This document shows, piece after piece, positions 7,008 through 63,314 of a DNA stretch of 64,000 nt; position 1 is the first letter of the stretch, and every line of letters starts with the position of its first letter. A model generated the notes under the pieces. It did not search any database and was not told the origin of the DNA. It saw only the letters and a list, made by a program, of their open reading frames with translations. The position numbers were made by a program, and so were the translations under genes. The stretch is from Acidimicrobiales bacterium (GTDB lineage: Bacteria > Actinomycetota > Acidimicrobiia > Acidimicrobiales > CATQHL01). The DNA lies in the NCBI GenBank assembly GCA_963664235.1, contig OY760933.1, forward strand, positions 3,035,419-3,099,418, written 5' to 3'.

Positions 7008-9005
7008 TCAGCAGCAGCCGGTGGGCTGTTGCGCCTCTCCGAGCAACTCCCGGGCTGCCGCCACGACACGATCGGGGTTCATGCCCAGCTCGGCCAGGAC
7101 GACGTTTCCGGGCGCGGATGCGCCGAATCGGTCGACCCCCAGCGCACGGTCAACCCAGCGTTCCCAACCCTGGGTGACACCCGCCTCGGTCGCCAGCGAG
7201 GGCCGGTCGGGTGGAATCACTGTTTCCCGGTACGTGGCCGGCTGCGCGGCGAACAGCTCCCAGCAGGGCATGGAGACCACCGCCGCGGCAATGCCTTCGG
7301 TCCTGAGAAGTTCGGCCGCGCTGACGCACAGCGCAACCTCGCTGCCCGAACCCACGAGCGTCAACGCCGCTCCGGAAGGTTCGCTGAGGACGTAGGCGCC
7401 ACGGTCAACCCCCTCGGGGGTGGTTCCCGGCAGCACCGGAGTTCCCTGTCGGGTCAAGATGAGCGCGGTCGGGCCATCGCAGTCCAGCGCGACACGCCAG
7501 GCACCGAGAGTCTCCGGCGCATCCGCCGGGCGGATGACCGTCAGGTCCGGGATGGCCCGCAGGGCCGCCACGTGTTCCACCGGCTGGTGCGTGGGCCCGT
7601 CCTCGCCGACGCCCAGGGAGTCGTGTGACCAGCAGAACACGGCCCTGGTTCCCGACAGGGCCGCCAGGCGCACCGCCGGGCGCATGTAGTCGCTGAAGAC
7701 CAGGAAGGTACCGCCGACCGGCAGCAGGCCACCGTGGCGGGCGATCCCCACCATCGCCGAACCCATGGCGTGCTCACGCACGCCGTAGAACACCTGGCGC
7801 CCGTCGCCGGCCTCGCGGCTCAGCGGGGTCTCGGCGGTCAGCTTCGTGCCGGTGTTCCCTGTCAGGTCGGCACCGCCGGCCAGCACGTGGTCCATGGCGG
7901 TCGCGACGGCGTTGAGGCACGCGCCACTGGCCGCGCGCGTCGCCACGGAGGTTCCCACCTCCCAGGGCCCGAGGCCGTCATCCCAGCCCTCCGGGGGTCG
8001 GGCCGCCCAAAGGCCGGGTAGGTCCGGGCGGGCTCCGGAGGCCTCGGCCCAGCGGTCCTCCCAGGCGCGGCGCGCCCCGGCTCCGCGGCGACCGACCGCG
8101 CGGTAGTACTCCAGCACATCGTCGGGCACCCAGAACCGCTCGGTGGGCGGCAACCCCATCACGGCCTTGGCAGCCGCGATCTCGTCGTCCCCCAGGGCGT
8201 AGCCGTGAGCCGCCGGCGCGTCGGTGAGCTCGGGGGAGGGGTGGGCTATGTGGCTGCGCAGTACGAGCAGCGAGGGGGCCTCGGTCGTCATGGCGCGACG
8301 CAACGCCGCTTCGAGCGCATCGAGATCCTCGGCCACCTCGCCCAGGGTCTCGACGTGCCAGCCGTAGGCCGCGAAACGGCCGGCGGCGTCGTCGGAGAGC
8401 CATAGATCGGTCTCGCCGTCGATGGACACCCGGTTGTCGTCGTACACGTAGACGAGGCGGCCCAGACCCAGATGCCCTGCCATGGACGCCGCCTCGTGGC
8501 TCACCCCTTCCGCGAGGTCGCCGTCACTGCAGATCACGAAGGTGTGGTGATCACAGAGTCCGGGGCCGTAGCGGGTGCGCAACCAGCGCTCGGCCAGCCC
8601 CATCCCCACGGCGTTGGCGAAGCCTTGGCCGAGCGGGCCGGTAGTGACCTCCACGCCGATCGCGGTCTCGGCCTCGGGGTGCCCCGGAGTGCGGCTGCCC
8701 CACTGCCGGAAGGCCTTCAGGTCGTCCAAGGAGAGGTCGTAGCCACAGAGGTAGGCCATGCTGTAGAGGAGGATCGAGGCGTGTCCGGCACTCAGCACGA
8801 ACCGGTCCCGGTCGGGCCAGTCGGGAGCCGCCGGGTCGTAGGTCATGATCCGGCTCCACAGCACGTGCGCCAGCGGAGCCAGAGCCATGGCGGTGCCCTG
8901 ATGGCCTGAGCGAGCCGCGTGGGGCGCATCCATGGCCAGCGCCCGGACCACGTCGATGGCGCGCCGTTCGAGAGCGAGGTCGCGGGCGAGATTCCCGCTG
9001 CTCAC
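7008..9005 (-). CDS. tkt: transketolase
   Basis: 665 aa carrying SGHQGTAMALAPL, the TPP-binding GDGDLAEG, and GEDGPTHQPVEH. The GTG start overlaps the upstream stop as GTGA. Confidence 0.95.
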   Translation of the reverse strand: MSSGNLARDLALERRAIDVVRALAMDAPHAARSGHQGTAMALAPLAHVLWSRIMTYDPAAPDWPDRDRFVLSAGHASILLYSMAYLCGYDLSLDDLKAFRQWGSRTPGHPEAETAIGVEVTTGPLGQGFANAVGMGLAERWLRTRYGPGLCDHHTFVICSDGDLAEGVSHEAASMAGHLGLGRLVYVYDDNRVSIDGETDLWLSDDAAGRFAAYGWHVETLGEVAEDLDALEAALRRAMTTEAPSLLVLRSHIAHPSPELTDAPAAHGYALGDDEIAAAKAVMGLPPTERFWVPDDVLEYYRAVGRRGAGARRAWEDRWAEASGARPDLPGLWAARPPEGWDDGLGPWEVGTSVATRAASGACLNAVATAMDHVLAGGADLTGNTGTKLTAETPLSREAGDGRQVFYGVREHAMGSAMVGIARHGGLLPVGGTFLVFSDYMRPAVRLAALSGTRAVFCWSHDSLGVGEDGPTHQPVEHVAALRAIPDLTVIRPADAPETLGAWRVALDCDGPTALILTRQGTPVLPGTTPEGVDRGAYVLSEPSGAALTLVGSGSEVALCVSAAELLRTEGIAAAVVSMPCWELFAAQPATYRETVIPPDRPSLATEAGVTQGWERWVDRALGVDRFGASAPGNVVLAELGMNPDRVVAAARELLGEAQQPTGCC

Positions 9006-10150
9006 CGACCCGCTCCCTGCCCGAACAGGGCGACGGAGGCCGTGAATCCGTGCAGGTAGCTGCGCGGGCCCACGGGCCCGATCTCACCGGCACAGAACAT
9101 CCCGGCCACCGGGGCCGGTGCGATGGCGCCGGACACCACCGAGGCGTCCTGGTCGGCAACATCGAAGAGACGGCGTCCCCTGCCGTTGCAGGTGAACAGC
9201 AACGCCCCGTCAGCACACCGTCCCGACATGAGGCCGCTGAGGTCGTCGCGCGCCGTGGTGGCGTCGCGGACGTGGAACTGCACCGTGGTGCCGGTCTCGA
9301 CGATGTCGCCCACCGCCAGCGCCTGCGAGGTTCGCTCCAACCCCAGCACGCCGCGCACCAGGAAGTCGCCCCTGTCGAAGTCCAGTTTGTGCTCGTTCAC
9401 GACGATGCCGACGTGAAGGCCGCGCTGCACCAGGGCGCGCTCGGAGGCATCGAGACCCTCCACGATCTCCTGCAGGCGTTCGAGGGCGGGTCGTCCACCC
9501 AACTCGTGAATCAGGTTGCGCTCGCCGTGGGTCACGACGTAGGGCTGCCCGATCGGTCGGCAACCTTGGGACACCACGGTCCGGGGCTCGGCGCTCGACT
9601 CCAGCAGCAAGCCGACGGCTCCATCGTCGAACACCTCGCCGCCGAGCACCAGGCGGTTTCCTCCCGCCGTACCCGACGCCGAAGCCAGCCCTCCGATTGC
9701 GCGAACCTGCCGATGGTCGGCTCCCAGCTGCACCAGCAGGCGGTCGGCGGGGAAGCTGAACGGATCGGCTATCAGCAGCAAAGTGCGCGGCCGATCGTCG
9801 AGCGGCGGGAGATCCTCCACGGGCGAGTGCTCAGCGGTGAGAGCGGGACCCAGACGCACAGGTACAGCGCCGGTGAGGGGAGCGGCCCAAGCCGCCACCG
9901 CCGGCGTCTCCTCCAATTCACGGCCTCCGGCGATGACCGACACCGCACAGGTGCCCAGCATCACCTCCGGTGCGAGCCGCTCGGCGAGGATGGCCGCCAG
10001 GCTGTCCATAGCTTCCAGATGCGTTGCGGTGGCGAAGAAAACCACCGCAGCGGGCGAACCGGCTTCCAACGAGCCGGCCAGATCGGCGGCGACCGCCGCA
10101 GCCGCGTCCGCCGTGGATTCCGCCTCCGAGAGGGCCACTGCAAAAGTCAT
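9002..10150 (-). CDS. FIST-domain (FIST_N + FIST_C) sensory protein
   Basis: 382 aa. The C-terminal part (LLFTCNGRGRRLF ... AGMFCAGEIGPVG ... YLHGFTASVALF) matches the FIST_C pattern as I remember it. Its stop overlaps the tkt start by 4 nt. Confidence 0.7.
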   Translation of the reverse strand: MTFAVALSEAESTADAAAAVAADLAGSLEAGSPAAVVFFATATHLEAMDSLAAILAERLAPEVMLGTCAVSVIAGGRELEETPAVAAWAAPLTGAVPVRLGPALTAEHSPVEDLPPLDDRPRTLLLIADPFSFPADRLLVQLGADHRQVRAIGGLASASGTAGGNRLVLGGEVFDDGAVGLLLESSAEPRTVVSQGCRPIGQPYVVTHGERNLIHELGGRPALERLQEIVEGLDASERALVQRGLHVGIVVNEHKLDFDRGDFLVRGVLGLERTSQALAVGDIVETGTTVQFHVRDATTARDDLSGLMSGRCADGALLFTCNGRGRRLFDVADQDASVVSGAIAPAPVAGMFCAGEIGPVGPRSYLHGFTASVALFGQGAGR

Positions 10151-36139: not shown

Positions 36140-36226
36140 GCCGTCAACGCTACCGGCCCGGCCACCTAAGAGGGAACCGGGGCCGAACCTTGCGGCCCGA
36201 CGGCAACCCGCCGTAGGGTGGTCAGC

Positions 36227-36318
36227 GAAATCGGGGAGCTCGAAATCTCGGGCTGAGAGGGTGAGGCAACTCACCGACCCGCAGGACCTGATCTGGGTAA
36301 TGCCAGCGGAGGGAATTC
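36227..36318 (+). promoter_or_regulatory. TPP (THI-box) riboswitch
   Basis: CGGGGAGC..GGGCTGAGAG..ACCC..GGACCTGATCTGGGTAATGCCAGCGGAGGGAA matches the TPP aptamer consensus. The P1 3' strand and GGAGGG Shine-Dalgarno abut ATG 36319. Confidence 0.9.
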
Positions 36319-37521
36319 ATGCGCGCGATCATTCATTCTCATTATCTTTCGAGTTCGTTGGGTGCGGTTGCGCTGGCGTTTCTCGTTGTCGTCGGATGCG
36401 GTCAGGACGCCGGGTCCTCCACCGAGGCACCCACCGCGGCGGCTCCTGCGCCCAACCCCGAACCAACTCCGCCGCCGGAGCCAGAACCGCCGGCACCACC
36501 CGAACCCCAGCCCGAGCCGGCTCCGCCACCGGAGCCGAGTCCCGAACCCGCCCCCGAACCGCCGCTGGAGCCGGGGGAGGTCACGGTGGTCACACACGAT
36601 TCCTTCGCCGTCTCCGAGGGCATCATCGAGTCGTTCGAGGAGAGCACCGGAATCACGGTGAACCTGCTCACCGGCGAGGACACCGGGTCGATGCTGAGCC
36701 AGGTCATCCTCACCAAGGACAACCCCATCGCCGATGTGGTCTTCGGCATCGACAACACGTTCCTGCAGCGGGCCCTGGACGAGGATCTCTTCATCCCGTA
36801 CCGCTCGCCTGCCGTCGACAGCGTGCCGGCCGAACTGCAACTCGACCCCGAGGACCGCGTCACGCCCATCGACTACGGCGACGTGTGTGTGAACTACTGG
36901 CTCGACGCCACCGACGGTGATCCACCGTCGACCCTCGAGGATCTTGCCAATCCTCGCCACGCCGGCTCATTCGTAACCCAGAACCCCGAGACCTCCTCGC
37001 CGGGCCTGGCCTTCCTGCTGGCCACCGTGGCAGCGTTCGGTGCCGACGGCTGGGAGGACTACTGGGCAGGCCTGCGTGACGGGGGAGTGTCGGTCACCGC
37101 CGGCTGGAGCGAGGCCTACTTCGGGGAGTTCGTGGCCGGGGGAGGGGACCGGGCTCTCGTGACCTCGTATGCCACCAGCCCGGTGGCGGAAGTGCTGTTC
37201 GCCGACCCGCCGACGGACACCCCGCCCACCGGCGTGCTGACCGACGGATGCTTCCGCCAGATCGAGTTCGCCGGAATCCTGGCGGGCACCGGGAACCTCC
37301 CCGGTGCTCAGGCGTTCGTGGACTTCATGCTCTCGGACACCTTCCAGGAGGACATCCCGCTGAACATGTTCGTGTTCCCCGCCAGCAGCACCGCCGAAGT
37401 GCCCGAGGTCTTCGCCGCCCACGCCGTGGAGGTCGAGGAACCACTCAGCCTCGACCCAGCGCTGATCGCCGCCGAGCGGGACAATTGGACACGCCGCTGG
37501 GTCGAGATCGTCCTGCGGTAG
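36319..37521 (+). CDS. ABC transporter substrate-binding lipoprotein (thiamine/iron(III) SBP family; thiamine-related by riboswitch context)
   Basis: Lipobox LVVVGC, a Pro/Glu-rich linker, then an SBP fold (VVTHDSFAVSE...NLLTGEDTG...ADVVFGIDN). Confidence 0.75.
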   Translation: MRAIIHSHYLSSSLGAVALAFLVVVGCGQDAGSSTEAPTAAAPAPNPEPTPPPEPEPPAPPEPQPEPAPPPEPSPEPAPEPPLEPGEVTVVTHDSFAVSEGIIESFEESTGITVNLLTGEDTGSMLSQVILTKDNPIADVVFGIDNTFLQRALDEDLFIPYRSPAVDSVPAELQLDPEDRVTPIDYGDVCVNYWLDATDGDPPSTLEDLANPRHAGSFVTQNPETSSPGLAFLLATVAAFGADGWEDYWAGLRDGGVSVTAGWSEAYFGEFVAGGGDRALVTSYATSPVAEVLFADPPTDTPPTGVLTDGCFRQIEFAGILAGTGNLPGAQAFVDFMLSDTFQEDIPLNMFVFPASSTAEVPEVFAAHAVEVEEPLSLDPALIAAERDNWTRRWVEIVLR

Positions 37522-41686: not shown

Positions 41687-44196
41687 TCAGCAACCACCGT
41701 CCCTGAACGGGTTGGCGCTGCGGGCCGGGGCGATCCTCCAGTCCATCAGGAAGTCCGTGCGGCAGAGGCCACCGAACTCGTGCATCAGGTTGCTGAGAAG
41801 CGTGAGATCTCCCGAGGAGTCGAGGAATGCGCGCCACAGGTCCGCGCCGTCGCTTATGTACTCCGTGTACCAATCAGGGACCTCCCCGGCCAGTCCGCTG
41901 CGAAGCACCTCCAGATCCTCGTCGGTTGGCGTCGCGGGCGTCTCCGGACAGGCAGACAGCCGCCCGTAGTAGGTCAGGAATGCGTCCGAATCGACGAGGT
42001 GCAGCATGGCATCCGCGAGCGCTTCGGTTCCTCCGAACGTGCAGCGGGGGTAGGTCACGGCGAAATAGAGCTGGACAGCGCCCCATGCCCTGTTCGGCGT
42101 GAAAGTCGTCGTGTGGTCGTAGACGTGAGCCAACTCGTGGACGCCGATGTGGACGATCTCGCGAGTACTGAGGCGATTCAGTCTCGTGCCGATCGCGACC
42201 TGCGAGGTCCGGCATTCGAACGCTCCGGGCTCAACGAACCCGCAGCTCACCCTTGTGCTCCCCCCGGCTGCCCGGTCGAATATGCGGACGTCCTCACGTA
42301 CGTGATCCCAGGCGACTCGCAGCCAGGGGAATTCATCCTCTTCCTGACGGACCAACTCGTCCATCGCGGCTCGGAACGGTCGGGCATCGATCATGGAATC
42401 CGCGTCGCTCCAGACGGGCAAATTCAACTGTGCGACGGCCGTCCGCCCGGCGCCGCCCGGCGCCGCCACCCTCGAAGGTGTCAGCCGAGCATCGGTGTCA
42501 CCAACACCGAGTTGCCCGTAGTAGTTGTGACCCCAGCACAGAACGCCATCACCGGCGGTCACGGCGCACGCATGTGAGCCACTCCAAGTGTTGCCGCTGC
42601 TTACGGTGACCGCCAGTGCATCGCGGATGTCCAATCGCACGGGCGCCAGCTGACTCTCCGCCGTGCCGGTCCCCAATTGGCCCACGTGATTGGTGCCCCA
42701 ACACGACACGCCACCGTCCCGGTGCAGCACGCAGGAACTGAATTCGCCTATGTCCACTGCCAGTGCGTCAGCGATGCCGAGCACCGCCGCCGGTCGCGGC
42801 TCTTCGAGGAACGGCTCCCGGTACCGAGGAGGCCGACCTCCGTGACCGCCTCACCGGATGCGTTGTAGTACCAGAATTCGTTCTGTCCCCAGCAGGAGAC
42901 CTCGCCCGACCTCCGCACGGCACAGCTGGACCCTCCGCCCGCCGATACCGCAACGGCGTCATCGATGCCCTTCACCTTCGTCGGCGACGAGCTCGACGAG
43001 CGCGTGCCGTCGCCGAGTTGCCCGTAGTAGTTGCCGCCCCAACAGGACACCGAACCGTCGGCGTGGAGGGCGCAGGCGTGGCTCGCTCCGGCTGCAATCC
43101 CGACGAGATCGCTCAAGCCCGTGACCTTCTGAGGCCAGTCTCTGGATTGCCGGGGCCAGTCGCCCAATAATCCGGCGAAGTCCAACCCCCAACACGAGGC
43201 CGTCCCGTCCGCGTGCACCACGCACGTGAACCGCGCACCCGCCGCGACGTCCACGGCATCCCCGATACCCGGCACCTTCGTCGGCACAGCCAGACCACTC
43301 GCGTGCTCCACCACGGGAACCGTCGGATCACCACCGGTCGGACCTTCCTGCTGTGGCACTGGGCTACCGGGAGTTCCCTGCCCCAGTTCGCCCTCGGATT
43401 CGATCCCCCAGCAGGAGACCGTCTGATCCTCGTGGAGCACGCAGGTATGACCGTCGCCGGTTCCCGATGACGAATCCCCGATGCTGATAGCCACGGCGTC
43501 ACGAACGCCGAGAGCAGGGATCGGGGACATCGCCACATAGATCGAGGGATCGCCGAGCCGGAACCCGTGGCTGTTGTCCCCCCAGCAGTCGACACCGCCG
43601 CCTGCGTTGACGGCGCACGTGTGGTACCCGCTCGCCGCAATGAGTGCGGCGACTGCTCCCGGCCCGGAGTCCTGCGGCGCTTCGATCGAACCCGCCGCCG
43701 CGGCGGCGCTCAGACTCAAGGGCGAACTCGACAGCCAGCGCCGCACGTCGGCGTCCGGCGGGAACAAGCGCCGCGACGGCAACAGCCGCTCACCCCACGA
43801 ACCTTCAGCGCCTCGCTGCTGCAACCCGAACTCGACACGACCGCTCTCGAGTCGCCGCGCCACGATGCGCACCTCCACCTCCGCGCTGGGACCTTCGAAG
43901 GCAGTGGTGTCGGTGCTCAGCACCAGCCGCGAACTCGACAGCCAGCGCCGCACGTCGGCGTCCGGCGGGAACAAGCGCCGCGACGGCAACAGCCGCTCAC
44001 CCCACGAACCTTCAGCGCCTCGCTGCTGCAACCCGAACTCGACACGACCGCTCTCGAGTCGCCGCGCCACGATGCGCACCTCCACCTCCGACGTCTCGCC
44101 GCCGGCCTCCTGAGCCGCGGCGGTCGCGGGACTGGCGCCCCCGATCAGGACAACGAGCAGCAGCGCAGCCGCCGGTCGAACAAGTCGCGGGATCAC
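41687..44196 (-). pseudogene. secreted repeat-module + RCC1-propeller + HExxH/6-Cys C-terminal domain protein, paralogue A, split by a -1 frameshift in a C3/G3 run
   Basis: ORFs 42748..44196 and 41687..42784 are the two halves of one gene. Adding one G to the GGG run at 42817..42819 gives a continuous 836-aa ORF (..GLLGTGEPFLEEPRPAAVLGIADALAV..) collinear with the 45593..47938 paralogue. Confidence 0.7.
43724..44090 (-). repeat. two perfect 160-bp direct repeats (period 207 bp) inside paralogue A
   Basis: 43724..43883 is identical to 43931..44090. Each encodes the module VEVRIVARRLESGRVEFGLQQRGAEGSWGERLLPSRRLFPPDADVRRWLSSS. Confidence 0.9.
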
Positions 44197-56597: not shown

Positions 56598-56818
56598 GGG
56601 AGAGGTGATCTGCAGCACTGCTCGGCAGTCTCCTGGGGTCCGTCGGTGCGTTCTGCCAGAACCTTACGACACCGGAAGTCCGAAGCGAAGGGAAGGCTCG
56701 TATCGCTGCCTCCGGGCCGTCCGGCCGGCCGCTGTTCGGCGACCCGATCACCGGACCACGCTGCTAGTTTGGCGGCGGCGCGAGCGCGCCCGACCACACC
56801 GACCCGGAAGGTGCATCC

Positions 56819-57909: not shown

Positions 57910-57945
57910 GCCGACCGGCACCTCAAACACTCCGAGGCCCAAATT

Positions 57946-58005
57946 GCTTCTGTGAGCAGAATCGCCGCTCCGTGCGGCGTAAATGCGCAGATTTGGCAAG
58001 GCGCC
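57946..58005 (+). repeat. 60-bp imperfect direct repeat R1 flanking the DUF559 cassette
   Basis: gcTTCTGtgagCAGAAtCGCCGCtccgtGCGGCGtaaatgcgcagatttggcaaggcgcc. It is about 80% identical to R2 at 59210..59272. Confidence 0.75.
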
Positions 58006-58041
58006 GAGAACAACCCCGGCATGAAGGGGGCGCCGGTTAGG

Positions 58042-58959
58042 TCACGCAGAACCAGCGGCCGCGTAGGCCTTGGCGACGACGGCACACAGGTCTCTGGGCC
58101 GCTCCGAGTAATCCTCCCAGGTGAAGTTGAGCACGTCCCAGCCCGCGGCCTGCAGCTGGTTGCGTCGACGGCGGTCGTTCACAAAGGACTCGCTGTTGTG
58201 GTGCCAGCGGATACTGTCGAGTTCGATGGCAAGCCGACGGCTCGGATAGGCAAGATCCACCTGGGCTACGAAACGCCCATGGTTGTCATACACCCGATAT
58301 TCCATCTCCGGCCGCACGATCCCCACTCCGACCAGGAGTTCGCGAACCGACCGGCTCCACTGGCTCAGAGGCACAACGTCGTCGCCGCAGCGTGCGTCGA
58401 GGGCGGTTCGCAAGTGCAGCAAGCCGTTCCTACCCCTGCGGGAGTGCGCCACCAGCACGTCGTAGAGGTCGCTATACCTCAGCCGCCGGTCGCGTACGAC
58501 AGCGTCGATGGCCCCCTCGAGCGACTGGCGGCTCACCACCGCGGCGAGATCAAGCACAGTGCGAGCCAGTCCTGTGCAGGGTATGCCGTCGATTTCAACC
58601 CGCCGGGCGAGGTGCATCTGCGCCGAGCGGTGCACGATGACCCCGGTGGCCGACCGGCCCCGCCCCAACGCCACCACCACCTCGGGAATCCTCAGGCTGA
58701 ACCCGTCGATGCCGTGTAGGGCCGCGGCCGACCGGTGGCTCGCCAGACCGCCGTGGCTGATACAGGTAGCAAGCAGCCTCGATTCTGGCGTGATCCGAAC
58801 TGCCGAGTGCTGGTACACGCCGCTGCTGACACGCCGCCAGCGGCCCGTACTCACGCGGTTCTGGATGCGATGCCGGGTCATGCCGGCGTCCAAAGCCTGA
58901 GACCGGGAGACAAGTCCATGCTGCCGTCGCATGTGCGTTTCGAGCCGCGCCTCGTCCAC
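58042..58959 (-). CDS. DUF559 (Vsr-like endonuclease fold) protein with AbiEi-like N-terminal domain
   Basis: Carries RRQHGLVSRSQALDAGMTRHRIQNRVSTGRWRRV and the C-terminal VDLAYPSRRLAIELDS...H. The start is uncertain (GTG 58959 or ATG 58932). The ORF to 59097 runs through an AT-rich promoter-like patch. Confidence 0.7.
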   Translation of the reverse strand: MDEARLETHMRRQHGLVSRSQALDAGMTRHRIQNRVSTGRWRRVSSGVYQHSAVRITPESRLLATCISHGGLASHRSAAALHGIDGFSLRIPEVVVALGRGRSATGVIVHRSAQMHLARRVEIDGIPCTGLARTVLDLAAVVSRQSLEGAIDAVVRDRRLRYSDLYDVLVAHSRRGRNGLLHLRTALDARCGDDVVPLSQWSRSVRELLVGVGIVRPEMEYRVYDNHGRFVAQVDLAYPSRRLAIELDSIRWHHNSESFVNDRRRRNQLQAAGWDVLNFTWEDYSERPRDLCAVVAKAYAAAGSA

Positions 58960-59209
58960 GGCCGCAGCACTGGCAGCAGACTCGTGGGAGCGATAGCTAT
59001 CTATAGCTATGGGAATATATGGGCAACTATTAATAATGCGAGAATACGGCCGATATCTGCCGCACGACAGGGACACTGCCCGGCGCCTTGCGCCCACAAG
59101 GGGGAGAGGCGAGCAGTTCAGGCCGTCGGAGGCGTCCCGACTTCAGGGTCCGTTGATAGGACAAGCGGCGGAAGCTTGATCGGTGCCTGGGTCGTCGGCT
59201 CTGGCCATC

Positions 59210-59272
59210 GCTTCTGTGAGCAGAAACGCCTCCTACGGCGGCGAAATCGCGCAAAGTTGGTGCAAGGCCGCT
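59210..59272 (+). repeat. direct repeat R2 flanking the DUF559 cassette
   Basis: gcTTCTGtgagCAGAAacgcctcctacggcggcgaaatcgcgcaaagttggtgcaaggccgc. It is in the same orientation as R1. Confidence 0.75.
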
Positions 59273-59296
59273 CCAGCCGCGCTAGGCCCGGGAGCG

Positions 59297-59478
59297 TCAA
59301 ATCGGCAAGGTCAGCAGGAACTCGACCCGACCGTCGCTGTCGTGGCCGTGAAGCAGGCGACTACCGGTGCTGTCGAGCAGCTAGAAGCCCGATCACGTGC
59401 CCGTATGCGTGAAGGAACAGTTCGTCAGCTATCGAGACTCGCGCCACAGCATCTGGAGGTGATCCTGAGGTGTCGACG
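59297..59478 (-). pseudogene. 3' fragment of a decayed thioredoxin-fold paralogue (split by IS256 insertion)
   Basis: Aligns at DNA level with the 3' part of 62346..62645 (..F*LLDSTGSRL.. versus ..FWLLDSTGRRI..). Both Trp codons of the intact copy are stops here (TGG->TGA, TGG->TAG), and there is a 1-nt indel. Confidence 0.55.
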
Positions 59479-59595
59479 GGCAGCGTCCCGCCGAGTGGTG
59501 GGGATTTGAGGTAGCTGGGAGGGTCCACCTGTAGGTGGGTCATCGGCATGATCCTCGGTGAGAGGAACTACTCACTCATCGAGGAGGACACACCG

Positions 59596-59913
59596 ATGAC
59601 CCTTTCTGATACTGCCACGGCACAGCTGTGGGAGAGTTTCCGCGCCGGCGGCGGCGCGAGCCTGGTCCGTGAGGCGGTGGAGTTGGTGCTCCAGGAGCTG
59701 ATCGAGGCCGAGGCCACCGAGGCGATCGGCGCCGGGCGCTATGAGCGCACCGATGCGCGGATCACCGAGCGCAACGGGCACCGGCCCCGGCTGTTGGCGA
59801 CCCGGGCCGGCGATGTCGAGTTGAAGATCCCCAAGCTGCGCAAGGGCAGCTTCTTCCCGTCAATCATCGAGCCCCGCCGGCGCATCGACCGTGCCCTGTG
59901 GGCGGTGGTCATG
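59596..59913 (+). pseudogene. IS256-family transposase, N-terminal part (interrupted)
   Basis: MTLSDTATAQLW...ERNGHRPRLLATRAGDVELKIPKLRKGSFFPSIIEPRRRIDRALWAVVM. Homology breaks after codon 106. Confidence 0.8.
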
Positions 59914-59914
59914 G

Positions 59915-61192
59915 CGCCTCTGTGTGTCAAGTCGACGGGGCGAGATGGCGTCGATGGTCGGCGAGGAGGGTGCGGAAGACCAGGTCAGACAGCCGTCGCT
60001 TGACGCAGCGAAGGGCTTCTCGACGGCTCTTACCCTCGGCGATCTTGCGCCGGTAGTAGTCCTGTCCAGCGGTGGGTTGGCGGATCTGGGAGAGCGCCAT
60101 GATGTGGAGCGCCGAGTTCAGTTGTCGGTTGCCGGCTCGGGAGAGGCGATGCCGAACGACGTCGCCGGAGGAGGCTTCGATCGGTGCGGTTCCGGTGTAG
60201 GACGCGAACTGGTCTTTGCTGTTGAAGCGGGTGATGTCGCCGACGTGGCCGAGGATCTTGGCGGCTAGGACCGGGCCGATGCCGAACAATTCGGTCAGCG
60301 AGGTGTGGCTCTCGGCGACGGCTTCGGTGGTGCGGGTCTCGAGCGAGGCGAGCGCCCGGTCGAGGTGGCGAAGATCAGCGAGGAGCTCGACAGCGAGCTG
60401 GCGTCGAGTCTTGGTGACCGGGTCGGTGGACCGCACTCGGCGGAGGAGTTGGCGTGCGGTGTCGATCGAGCCGCGGGAGATCTTCTCGCCGGGGACCAGG
60501 TGGGCCATCATGGCGTGCAGCCGGTTGAGCGTCTGGGTGCGTTGCCGACACAGGTCGTCGCGACGGTCGGCGAGGAGTCGCAGCGTGGTGGCGTGACTTT
60601 CGGCGGCGACGCCGTTGAGTCGGTCGTTGTCGATCGCCGCGATGCCGACCGCGATCGCGTCGGCATCGTCGTTCTTGCGGCCGTGACCGGTGGACAACAG
60701 CCGAACGCGGGTGGCGAGTTTGGCGGGCACATCGACGACCTGCTCGCCTGCGGCGACAAGGTGCTGAGCGACGGGTGCGCCGCTGCCGGCGGCGCCTTCG
60801 ACGGCCCAGCGCCGGTTCGGCCAACGCCGGCCGACCGTGACCAGGTCGCGGCGTCCGACGCGGTTGGTTGGGAAGGTCTGCTGATGCAACACCCCTCGGC
60901 GTTGATCGAGCACGGCAATCGTGACTGAGGTCTTGTGGGCGTCGCAGCCGATCGTGACGGACATGGGCTCCTCCTCGGGGCTCAGGGTTCTGGTGCGGTG
61001 TCGCTGGAGGGCAGTCCGACTTGGGGCAATGCAGGCCTCTGTTGAGCCACTCGTGGCGACGGCGGGAGGTGCCGGGCCGCATGCCATTACCGAGCCAACC
61101 CGAAGGCGGCAGAGGCTTACCGAGCGTCCCGACACCTCCCTCGATCGACGAACTCGGCCGAGCCCGCCAACCAGCCACGAGTTAACAAGTCG
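59915..61192 (-). mobile_element. IS110-family insertion sequence (about 1.28 kb) inserted in the IS256 transposase gene
   Basis: Removing this segment restores ..AVVM-EAYVAGVSTRSVDDLV.. in frame. The junction is ambiguous by one G. No terminal inverted repeats or target duplication are seen, which is usual for IS110. Confidence 0.75.
59927..60964 (-). CDS. IS110-family transposase (DEDD N-domain + C-terminal helix-hairpin-helix domain)
   Basis: 345 aa from ATG 60964: MSVTIGCDAHKTS..WAVEGAAGSG..DDADAIAV..LTELFGIGPVLAAKILGHVGDITRF...SSGDVVRHRLSRAGNRQLNSAL. Confidence 0.85.
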   Translation of the reverse strand: MSVTIGCDAHKTSVTIAVLDQRRGVLHQQTFPTNRVGRRDLVTVGRRWPNRRWAVEGAAGSGAPVAQHLVAAGEQVVDVPAKLATRVRLLSTGHGRKNDDADAIAVGIAAIDNDRLNGVAAESHATTLRLLADRRDDLCRQRTQTLNRLHAMMAHLVPGEKISRGSIDTARQLLRRVRSTDPVTKTRRQLAVELLADLRHLDRALASLETRTTEAVAESHTSLTELFGIGPVLAAKILGHVGDITRFNSKDQFASYTGTAPIEASSGDVVRHRLSRAGNRQLNSALHIMALSQIRQPTAGQDYYRRKIAEGKSRREALRCVKRRLSDLVFRTLLADHRRHLAPST

Positions 61193-62137
61193 GAGGCGTA
61201 CGTGGCCGGCGTGTCGACACGGTCGGTCGATGATCTGGTGGCCGCTTTGGGCGCCGAGTCGGGGATCTCCCGCTCGGAGGTCTCCCGCATCTGCGGGGGC
61301 CTCGACGAGGTCGTGGAGGCGTTCAGGACCCGGCGCCTGGACCACGTCGAGTTCCCGTACGTGTATCTCGACGCCACCTATCTGAACGTGCGCAACAACC
61401 TCGCCCAGCCGGCGTCGATGGCCACCGTCGTCGCCACGGGCATCACCGCAGACGGCAACCGGGAGGTCCTGGGCTGCGACGTCGGCGACAGCGAAACCGA
61501 GGCGTTCTGGCAACAGTTTCTCGGCTCGTTGCGCGACCGGGGCCTCACAGGGGTGCGCCTGGTGATCTCCGATGCGCATCGCGGCCTCGGCGCCGCCGCT
61601 GACCGGTGGTTCCAGGGAGCGGCCCGTCAGCGCTGCCGGGTGCACTTCATCCGGAACCTGCTCGCTGTGGTGCCCAAGTCGCACCAGCACATGGCCGCCG
61701 CGCTGTTCCGCACCATCTTCGCCCAACCCGACGCCGGCGCCGTCGCCGACGCCTGGGACCAAGTCAGCGACCAGCTCGCCGCCCGGTTCCCCAAGACCGG
61801 ACCGCTCATGGACGGCGCCAAGACCGAGGTCCTCGCCTTCGCTGGGTTCCCCCGGGCGCACTGGCAGAAGATCTGGTCCACCAACCCCCTCGAGCGGATC
61901 AACAAGGAAATCAAGCGACGCTCCCGGGTCGTGGGGATCTTCCCCAACGAGGCCTCCGCCATCCGCCTCGTCGGCGCCATCCTCGCCGACCTCCACGACG
62001 AATGGCAGGCCACCGACCGCCGCTACCTCTCCGAAGACTCCATGAGCCTCCTCTACCCCGAGCGCGATAGTCTCGCCACCGCCGAACTCACAGTCGGCAA
62101 CCATCACCGAGGCTCAACTCAAAAGCCCACCACTTGA
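61193..62137 (+). pseudogene. IS256-family transposase, C-terminal part
   Basis: EAYVAGVSTRSVDDLV...YVYLDATYLNVR...VISDAHRGL...CRVHFIRNLL...TNPLERINKEIKRRSRVVGIFPN is the IS256 DDE domain. The stop lies inside the right IR. Confidence 0.85.
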
Positions 62138-62149
62138 TGGGACGCCCCC

Positions 62150-62345
62150 TGTCGACGCAGTCTTTGTTGCTCGCGAGATCACCGGTCAAGCCGACGACGG
62201 TAAGGCGGTGGAAGTTCTCTCGAGGGATCTGCTCGCCAGACCGAGCGACGTCCTGGCCCGAAGACCCAGGCAGGCCCCACCTCCCGGAACGGCATCGGCA
62301 TGAAGTTCGAAGAGCAGTGGCGAGGCGCACCGACTGGAAGCACGC
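62150..62345 (-). pseudogene. 5' fragment of the decayed thioredoxin-fold paralogue
   Basis: ..EQIPRENFHRLTVVGLTGDLASNKD.. aligns with ..EQFARENSHRLRVVGIGSTGDLATNQA.. of the upstream gene. The CxxC region is lost through a 17-nt deletion or frameshifts. Confidence 0.5.
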
Positions 62346-63314
62346 TCAGGACAGGTGGTTCAGCAGCAGGGTTAGCAGTTCCTCGTCGAACGCGCTGCCA
62401 CCGAAGATGCGCCGGCCGGTGCTGTCGAGCAGCCAGAAGCTGGACCAGGCGGGCGCCGGGAAGTGGTAGTAGTTCGTCGGCACCCGTGAGTCGCTCAACA
62501 GCATCGTGAAGCTGATCCCGTAGGTGTCGACGAAAGCCTGATTCGTCGCCAGGTCGCCCGTCGAGCCGATGCCGACGACTCTGAGCCGGTGGGAATTTTC
62601 TCGAGCGAACTGCTCGATGGCCGGAGCGTGGCTCTGGCATGTGCCTCAATAGGGACTCCACAACCAGAACAGCAGCGGGGTCCGGCCGGTCACCACCGAG
62701 CGGATGTTCGCCGCCTCCCCGGTGTGCACGTCGACCATGTCGAAGTCGAGCACGTCCTCGGAGACCTGCGCCACGCCGAAGTCGCTCCCCGACACGCTCT
62801 CGGTGAGCGTCACGACGACCGGCGAACTGTTCAGCCAGCGGCCCACCTCCGCATCGGGGCCGAAGAACCGCTGCGCCGGCAAGATCCGGTAGCCCCAGGT
62901 CGCACCATCATGACGTTGCTGCAAGGCGAACTCGATGCGATCATCGGCCAACACCTGCACGGCCACGCGTACGACCACTGCGGCGCGGGCGGAGGAGTCA
63001 GTTGGGTTGGAGGTGATCGTCAGCGGCGAGCTGGCGAACCAGACGCCGACCGGGGCCCCCGGAGGTAGGAACCGCTGCAACGGTGTGGCCGACTCGCTCC
63101 ACGGCCCATCCGCAGCACGGAACTGCACGACGAACTCGACGCTTCCGTCGTCGTGGCGCTGCGCCAGGATCCGGGCCTCGAGTTCGTGCCCGGCCGGCTC
63201 CTCGGCCGCCTCCTGGGCACTGACGGCGGCGGGAACGCCGGCGACGCCCAGCCAGGCCACCAGGCCCGCCAGGACGGCGCGGGCAAATCTCCCCCGTATC
63301 GATCGGGAACTCAT
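62346..63314 (-). CDS. secreted repeat-module + thioredoxin-fold (TlpA/redoxin-like) protein with in-frame TGA at the first active-site Cys position (selenocysteine candidate or recent pseudogene)
   Basis: ATG 63314, signal peptide, two R-x-EF-x-LQ/RFF-P modules, then ..GRTPLLFWLWSPY-TGA(62646..62648)-GTCQSHAPAIEQFARENSHRLRVVGIGS..FWLLDSTGRRI... The frame stays open for 99 more codons to TGA 62346. The track shows only the 5' 245-aa ORF. Confidence 0.55.

Follow-up and report, generated by a model that had tools for sequence, protein, structure and literature searches.

This work concerns a candidate selenoprotein gene near the end of the window, by which we mean the whole 64,000-nucleotide stretch of DNA analysed here (Acidimicrobiales bacterium, contig OY760933.1, positions 3,035,419 to 3,099,418). 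On the minus strand an open reading frame (ORF) starts with ATG at 63314, runs through ...TGRTPLLFWLWSPY to an in-frame TGA at 62648..62646 (codon 223) and goes on with GTCQSHAPAIEQFARENSHRL... for 99 sense codons until a terminal stop, again TGA, at 62348..62346. An earlier note on this DNA had remarked on the TGA at the first Cys of a WxPxCxxC motif, on the frame that stays open for 99 codons to 62346 and on two stem-loops after the TGA, and had offered two options, a secreted redoxin containing selenocysteine (Sec) or a pseudogene. The reading of the ORF and a profile alignment on the CxxC bear out the position of the TGA, the frame is open as described, and both hairpins lie at the coordinates it gave, with their starts at the 8th and 29th nucleotides after the UGA and the A.C mismatch of the first one. 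The features of the locus are listed here, SECIS standing for selenocysteine insertion sequence and Cys forms for relatives that carry cysteine at the same site.

62346..63314, minus strand: complete coding sequence of the predicted selenoprotein, 322 residues with Sec at 223, plus stop (sequence, and orthologues with the same start, frame and stop)
63216..63314, minus strand: predicted export signal, residues 1-33, MSSRSIRGRFARAVLAGLVAWLGVAGVPAAVSA followed by QE (read from sequence)
62799..63188, minus strand: two beta-rich repeats of ~55-65 residues, RIxAQRxxDGxVEFxxQ...W...LPxxRFFPxxxxVGRWLxSSP (AlphaFold2 model)
62349..62774, minus strand: predicted thioredoxin-fold TlpA/DsbE/DsbF-like domain across the TGA, residues ~181-322 (Pfam, NCBIfam, family profile)
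62637..62648, minus strand: active-site motif U-G-T-C with the candidate Sec codon TGA at 62646..62648, aligned with the C-x-x-C of DsbF/DsbE and of Cys-form relatives
62620..62638, minus strand: hairpin 1, GCCAGAGC-CAC-GCUCCGGC, which probably serves the recoding signal as an accessory or a spacer
62601..62617, minus strand: hairpin 2, UCGAGC-AGUUC-GCUCGA, loop 62607..62611, encoding I-E-Q-F-A-R, predicted SelB-binding bacterial SECIS
62403..62426, minus strand: segment AWSSFWLLD with the Ser equivalent to the cis-Pro, residues ~297-304 (profile alignment)
62346..62348, minus strand: true stop codon TGA; 19 orthologues keep it at this position, with 98 or 99 codons between it and the Sec codon

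The predicted protein opens with a putative signal peptide; two beta-rich repeats come next, and a linker joins them to a DsbE/DsbF(TlpA)-like domain that bears the U-G-T-C. Its N-terminus shows a basic segment, a hydrophobic core and a V-S-A motif followed by Q-E, and AlphaFold2 places a helix at residues 10-21 with low confidence; the export signals of other family members are of the lipoprotein type (L-A-A-C-G), and most of these members are lipoproteins with low-complexity linkers. In the AlphaFold2 model of the 222-residue N-terminal part, the predicted local distance difference test score is ~90 across residues 43-172, which comprise the repeats. A PDB fold search with the modelled repeats gave no match at E<0.03, and no Pfam or NCBIfam match was found for them. 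The same two repeats, of ~55 residues, open two secreted RCC1-repeat proteins of the window (42748..44196 and 45593..47938, both on the minus strand), there in the version ..VRIVARRLxxGRVEFxLQ..WGERLLPxRRxFP..GRWLxSSP.

For the Pfam and NCBIfam searches, Cys was written at position 223 of the read-through product. The domain is homologous to thioredoxin-fold proteins across the TGA: a family domain profile that runs over this codon matched in the PDB DsbF (3IOS, 9.5e-18) and DsbE/Mpt53 (1LU4, 1.3e-17), followed by ResA, StoA and thioredoxins; in the alignments the TGA falls on the first Cys of the CxxC. The profile matches indicate a thioredoxin fold whose helix 1 begins with W-x-x-x-C-x-x-C, and those to DsbF and DsbE confirm that the part downstream of the TGA carries the rest of a redoxin fold, as had been proposed. 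The accompanying claim that this part has no start codon of its own holds in that nothing starts near the TGA, but not entirely, as an ORF of 52 aa opens farther inside, at ATG 62504, and is called by gene callers in orthologous loci.

Conservation of the TGA and of the frame beyond it

The read-through product was searched against 5.8 billion proteins, which yielded ~68 homologues with identities of 43-84%, each covering at most 69% of the query. An exact look-up found no database record for the window protein itself, and the window-type orthologues are present in databases only as a 222-aa piece ending at the TGA; the 23 orthologous database proteins that were read all terminate exactly at ...LLFWLWSP[YH]. 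At the nucleotide level, we compared 115 TGA sites (103 of them distinct) from the window, from 16 Acidimicrobiales/Acidimicrobiia genome loci including tandem paralogues (two from ENA and 14 from metagenome-assembled genomes) and from 80 metagenome loci, these last being the best 80 of the 188 relatives that a metagenome scan with the domain alignment had found.

All 115 family genes have TGA where the first Cys of U-x-x-C would be, and TGY is found in none of them, across several paralogue groups and down to ~35% domain identity. Orthologues that all carried TGC/TGT at this codon had been named beforehand as an outcome that would speak against Sec; the alignment gave TGA throughout. At each of the 16 genome loci the TGA is followed by G-[TI]-C and by a conserved continuation of 98-99 codons to a conserved stop. 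Further paralogues at the same loci have their own TGA at the same place (FWFWSPL-U-LTC, FWFWSPL-U-ETC and WFWA[HE]W-U-P[TV]C), the FWFWSPL-U-LTC paralogue lying in tandem, directly upstream of the main gene. The best 80 metagenome relatives mostly read W-[FM]-W-A-P-H-U-x-x-C-R-R-E-A-P-G-V-E-Q-F-A-R or F-W-F-Y-S-P-Y-U-G-Q-C.

Coding also continues past the TGA across the family, where 92-105 in-frame codons precede the stop. Among 19 orthologues, the variable sites at codon positions 1/2/3 number 44/31/63 and 19/21/35, with third positions the highest. The final stop of these genes is itself TGA in 87 of 109 cases. As TGA serves as the normal stop in the very genes that carry it internally, any recoding must hinge on local context, and a genome-wide reassignment of TGA is ruled out.

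In many genomes two Sec-containing paralogues are adjacent, each with its own TGA and an identical hairpin 2. They are found at 8979..10004 in locus L002, at ~9640-9705 in L010-L014, at 10118 and 11276 in L015 and at 2937 and 4153 in L016; one of the L015 paralogues appears, by eye, to be fused to S-layer-homology repeats.

Two hairpins after the TGA and their fate in Cys forms

Hairpin 2, whose first nucleotide is the 29th after the UGA, has in the window a folding energy of -8.8 kcal/mol (z -3.14), and 2 of 200 shuffled sequences were equally stable. In the alignment of the 103 distinct segments, each consisting of the TGA plus 75 nt, the 16 nt UCGAGCAGUUCGCUCG are nearly invariant and the RNAalifold consensus structure is hairpin 2 alone. 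Its pairing is kept in 91% of the cells, against at most 44% in slid controls, and there are 33 compensatory cells, giving a covariation score that none of 500 shuffles reached. The compensatory changes are C-G to U-A (9), A-U to G-C (3) and C-G to G-C (1), and they reach into the protein: the replacement of R by Q (CGA to CAA) is always paired with a synonymous C to U change in the preceding codon (9 cases), and that of E by G (GAG to GGG) with a change of GCU to GCC (3 cases). The synonymous sites of the hairpin are frozen, with GAG in 100, CAG in 103 and GCT in 100 of the 103 segments, while GCT makes up 12% of the Ala codons elsewhere in the same genes. The mean energy of the hairpin is -9.8 kcal/mol, compared with -3.2 for synonymous recodings, the median z is -3.4, and 90% of the sequences fall in the top 5%. 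Constraint thus acts here at the RNA level. Hairpins with an AGTT[CTA] loop and a stem of at least 5 bp numbered 130 in ~0.68 Mb, and 114 of them are hairpin 2 at exactly TGA+37; a search for hairpin 2 in the other genes of the loci gave no additional selenoprotein candidates.

According to the published consensus, bacterial SECIS elements have a loop of 3-9 nt, a stem of 4-16 bp, a spacing of 16-37 nt and a minimum free energy of -7.5 kcal/mol or lower, with a G among the first two loop positions that is usually followed by G or U (PMC13188914). Hairpin 2 agrees with it on all four counts, having the 5-nt loop AGUUC (G at position 2, then U), a 6-bp stem, a spacing of 34 nt and -8.8 kcal/mol. 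An Rfam scan of the window at gathering thresholds found no SECIS family, a result without weight, since Rfam covers such elements of bacteria poorly. The sole Rfam match in the window was a thiamine pyrophosphate riboswitch (RF00059) at 36222..36331 on the plus strand, with 66.8 bits, above its gathering score. Another hairpin with a similar loop, CGCUGCU-AGUUU-GGCGGCG, is found at 56759..56777 (plus strand), ~40 nt upstream of a glyoxalase-family gene, and is kept in nine orthologous loci; it has no TGA at the distance expected of a SECIS, and it is possibly an element of the 5' untranslated region or a terminator.

Hairpin 1 is under constraint as well, in a looser form. In the window it starts at the 8th nucleotide after the UGA with one A.C mismatch and reaches -9.5 kcal/mol (z -2.95; 2 of 200 shuffles equally stable). 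Across the family it has 4-9 bp, a variable loop and register shifts of up to 4 nt, and even paralogues of one genome differ in loop and register (CAC vs GAAG in L002). As these shifts separate subgroups, hairpin 1 is missing from the RNAalifold consensus, and it was assessed instead by pair counts for each register, by synonymous recoding and by the contrast with Cys forms. Its mean energy is -11.8 kcal/mol in Sec forms, against -7.5 for synonymous recodings, and several pair types occur per position (for example AU/GC/CG), a count that is biased toward structure by the sorting into registers. In the window, hairpin 1 departs from the SECIS consensus in two respects, a loop without G (CAC) and a spacing of 15 nt. 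The two structures together suggest a two-hairpin signal in which hairpin 2 is probably the SelB-binding SECIS and hairpin 1 has an accessory role.

The Cys-form relatives constitute a natural control. They were found by an exhaustive search with the 99 residues that follow the TGA and by a word-index search with a W-A-P-H-U member, and they include full-length proteins (P0198-P0235 among them) with ...W-F-W-A-P-H-C-P-x-C... and, more generally, W-A-P-H-C-x-x-C, each a single continuous protein. The seven Cys-form genes have TGC or TGT at the site, and the mean energies fall to -2.5 kcal/mol in the region of hairpin 2 and to -4.1 in that of hairpin 1, compared with -9.8 and -11.8 in the 103 Sec forms; a hairpin-1-like stem of -8.4 kcal/mol survives in one of the Cys forms. 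The peptide EQFAR is present in 100 of 103 Sec forms and in 1 of 14 Cys forms, a distribution from which this peptide appears to be imposed by the RNA element. The gene P0198 (L100 261..1061), which has TGC, writes EQFAR as CTG GAG CAG TTC GCC CGA, with two pairs of hairpin 2 broken, and looks like a recent conversion from Sec to Cys. The loss of hairpin 2 in Cys forms, together with the conserved TGA and the conservation downstream of it, supports the first option of the earlier note, a secreted redoxin containing Sec.

The two forms also differ in their surroundings. A CcdA/DsbD_TM membrane electron-transfer gene lies directly upstream of at least three of the seven Cys forms (L102, L103 and L106), and a fourth Cys locus (L104) has a weak partial tblastn match to CcdA/DsbD_TM upstream; no such gene was found in the available flanks of any Sec-form locus or in the window. 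This contrast may mean that the two forms differ in their redox partner or in the direction in which electrons flow.

As for the neighbourhood in the window, synteny with the orthologous loci is broken by a 4.4-kb insertion (57925..62342) that starts 3 nt after the stop codon of the selenoprotein gene. It is a nest of insertion sequences (IS): a minus-strand IS110-family element interrupts the transposase gene of an IS256/Mutator-family element, which is thereby divided into 59548..60003 and 61202..62137 (plus strand). The decaying neighbouring paralogue reported earlier does exist as a remnant, although it amounts to only ~46 nt (~62190..62235, minus strand) beside the IS element and within the insertion; these 46 nt are 80% identical to the EQFAR..VVG part of the gene and contain a degraded hairpin 2 core, GAGCAGATCCCTC. 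The insertion has left the selenoprotein gene intact, and its collinearity with the orthologues is preserved.

Selenocysteine and the alternatives

All these data suggest that the UGA of the window gene is very probably recoded, and we infer that the residue inserted is Sec rather than another one. The region 63314..62346 (minus strand) would then be one intact gene for an exported selenoprotein in which Sec is the nucleophilic residue of the DsbE/DsbF(TlpA)-like domain, in the motif W-S-P-Y-U-G-T-C. The UGA at 62648..62646 would be decoded by Sec-tRNA(Sec) brought by SelB, and SelB would be tethered to the mRNA through hairpin 2 (62617..62601), with its 6-bp stem, its spacing of 34 nt from the UGA and the G-U at positions 2-3 of its AGUUC loop. 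Hairpin 1 (62638..62620), which lies between the UGA and hairpin 2, would most likely be a structured spacer or pause element, and the nucleotides of hairpin 2 would dictate E-Q-F-A-R in helix 1 of the domain. After export, the mature protein would act as an extracytoplasmic thiol-disulfide (selenenylsulfide) oxidoreductase.

Several observations weigh against this interpretation. ARAGORN found no tRNA-Sec in the window or in 60 loci, and tblastn with E. coli SelA, SelB and SelD gave no match to selA, selB or selD in the window plus 0.61 Mb of loci, which is unsurprising because the sample is so small. A SelA query taken from the selD-selA-selB cluster of Miltoncostaea oceani (Thermoleophilia; a plasmid record) gave at least 8000 matches, and none of the best 120 (at least 60% identity) lies on contigs of the genomes that bear the gene. 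An Acidimicrobiia bin from the sponge Aplysina aerophoba, bin134, is listed with SelD only, without SelA or SelB (Slaby et al. 2017, Table S4). The 34-nt spacing of hairpin 2 comes close to the upper limit of the consensus, and hairpin 1 would conform to the SECIS consensus in many family members. With regard to the domain, the Pfam families Redoxin, Thioredoxin and AhpC-TSA score slightly below their cut-offs on the read-through product (Redoxin 1e-05 over residues 198-275, 25.8 bits vs a cut-off of 26.6), and every NCBIfam match (TrxC, ResA, DsbE and TlpA) is under its curated cut-off. Finally, the cis-Pro of DsbF (..TQQP..) is aligned, in a sequence alignment, with a Ser in the window subfamily. 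This Ser is invariant in the 11 sequences of alignment A2 (the window group plus three other paralogue groups), so that the conserved cis-Pro of TlpA/DsbE/DsbF-like oxidoreductases appears to be replaced in the window subfamily; the larger W-A-P-H-U metagenome group retains Q-P at the site.

Published data on Sec machinery within the class make its presence plausible, if only indirectly, for the window gene as well. According to a 2026 preprint, each of the 84 complete genomes of Actinomarina (class Acidimicrobiia; Actinomarinales) has selC, selA and selD together with a selB that is divergent. SelA and SelB occur together in most of the A. aerophoba symbiont bins, the Acidimicrobiia bin76 being listed with two SelA, one SelB and one SelD (Slaby et al. 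2017, Table S4), and the A. aerophoba sponge metagenome assembly MKWU contains a close orthologue of the window gene (L020).

The pseudogene option of the earlier note, that a one-step change of TGY to TGA inactivated a CxxC redoxin gene whose frame stays open by chance at high G+C, draws on the fact that at 65-70% G+C little can be concluded from an open frame by itself and that a decayed paralogue fragment and IS elements adjoin the gene. The TGA, however, is shared by 115 of 115 genes that span many lineages and paralogue groups, the protein sequence behind it is kept, as are the frame and the place of the stop, with an excess of variation at third positions, and the orthologues, at identities of 43-84%, are not assembly copies of one sequence; moreover, the insertion begins past the stop codon of a gene that is collinear with its orthologues. 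Because both the TGA and the sequence downstream of it are conserved, the comparative data refute this option, to which we give a negligible probability. That the TGA is a real stop, the product being a 222-residue repeat protein and the downstream part either untranslated or made separately, we consider highly improbable. Gene callers and the NCBI annotation do give exactly this 222-residue product, and TGA is the commonest stop in the window genome, yet a stop here would break off the thioredoxin fold after strand 1, ahead of the active-site helix, and it would leave unexplained the RNA-level constraint just past the TGA. Furthermore, the downstream part is under protein-level conservation and has no conserved start near the TGA, and the Cys-form relatives are continuous single proteins.

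The identity of the inserted residue is not revealed by sequence data, and the same RNA element might serve to insert another one, either Cys by means of a SelB-dependent tRNA of Cys identity with a UCA anticodon or whichever residue a near-cognate read-through provides. tRNA(Sec)-like tRNAs of other identity occur in some bacteria, and the sponge bin with SelD and neither SelA nor SelB would fit such a case. We regard it as very unlikely: the Cys-form relatives use TGC/TGT and lose the hairpins, so that a costly recoding signal kept merely for Cys would be unparsimonious, the site is that of the nucleophilic Cys, a position at which known selenoproteins as a rule show Sec/Cys pairs, and hairpin 2 fits the consensus of a SelB-type SECIS. 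If Sec is inserted, SelB might still bind hairpin 1, or both hairpins jointly, leaving hairpin 2 for mRNA stability or ribosome pausing. The loop of hairpin 1 lies 15-17 nt after the UGA, a distance close to the geometry of the E. coli fdhF SECIS, and in most members a loop with G first and a stem of 6-9 bp would satisfy the consensus; hairpin 1 is also far weaker in Cys forms (-4.1 vs -11.8 kcal/mol) and shows several pair types per position. As hairpin 1 is SECIS-like in so many members, binding of SelB at hairpin 2 is something that we infer. On the other side, paralogues that belong to one genome, and so must rely on the same SelB, do not agree in the loop and register of hairpin 1, the loop of hairpin 1 in the window has no G, one Cys form retains a hairpin-1-like stem (-8.4 kcal/mol), and the loop and stem of hairpin 2 are invariant across all groups. 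A role of hairpin 1 as the binding site, alone or with hairpin 2, is therefore unlikely, though less so than the other alternatives.

Relation to known selenoproteins and meaning

Thioredoxin-fold selenoproteins with UxxC are already well known. A 'thiol-disulfide isomerase-like protein' family (TlpA-like, cd02966, UxxC) was predicted from the Sargasso Sea metagenome in 2005 (PMC1088965) and is listed in Table 1 of a 2026 review of the prokaryotic selenoproteome (PMC13188914), where MGB1650493.1 stands for it. The window protein resembles it in the TlpA-like fold, in the Sec at the first position of UxxC, in the marine origin and in the stem-loop that follows the UGA within the ORF; compared by description only, it differs in its two N-terminal repeats, in the Ser at the cis-Pro site and in belonging to a clade with an invariant EQFAR-encoding hairpin for which no NCBIfam model reaches its cut-off. 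Among solved structures the best matches, DsbF (Rv1677) and DsbE/Mpt53 (Rv2878c) of M. tuberculosis, are actinobacterial exported TlpA-like oxidoreductases whose motif W-F-W-A/T-P-W-C-P-x-C-x-x-E-A-P is close to the W-F-W-A-P-H-U-P-x-C-R-x-E-A-P of the family. They have Cys instead of Sec, lack the recoding element, EQFAR and the N-terminal repeats, and carry the cis-Pro where the window subfamily has Ser. The ResA-like WAxxUGC selenoprotein (NF041054) is likewise a Sec-containing protein of TlpA/ResA-like fold, with a U-G-C motif where the window protein has U-x-x-C; a family member scored 25.8 bits against the cut-off of 300 of this model and the window protein gave no match, so it is not the same family.

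With regard to the RNA element, hairpin 2 is like the bacterial SECIS consensus (E. coli fdhF type) in being a stem-loop within the ORF with a small apical loop that has G and then U. It differs in its spacing at the long end of the range (34 nt) and in the second conserved hairpin that occupies the gap. Bacterial SECIS elements have been described as bearing little resemblance to one another, and unlike typical ones the core of hairpin 2, GAGCAGUUYGCUC, has been inherited nearly unchanged across the protein family. The distinctive features of the family are thus this near-invariant inherited SECIS core, the second hairpin, the fused repeat module and the Ser at the cis-Pro site. Tentatively, and with clearly less than even confidence, the family might be seen as an uncurated, essentially obligate-Sec clade of exported actinobacterial DsbE/DsbF-like oxidoreductases with a two-hairpin signal whose GAGC-AGUUY-GCUC core has stayed almost unchanged since the origin of the family, and in which the fusion to the repeat module and the Ser arose in Acidimicrobiales lineages with members from sponge metagenomes, a hint of a different substrate or mechanism.

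The window gene does not overturn known selenoprotein biology. The public copies of the Sec forms are annotated as a 'hypothetical protein' of ~105-306 residues that ends at the TGA and there is no NCBIfam model for the family; a family-based model would correct hundreds of such mis-annotations. Hairpin 2 is a compact and highly conserved candidate SelB-binding hairpin for studies of Sec insertion in actinobacteria, and the Sec and Cys forms of the same protein provide a natural experiment on how a SECIS within the ORF constrains the protein sequence, as in EQFAR. Finally, the gene would mark the use of Sec in Acidimicrobiales, including lineages from sponge metagenomes.

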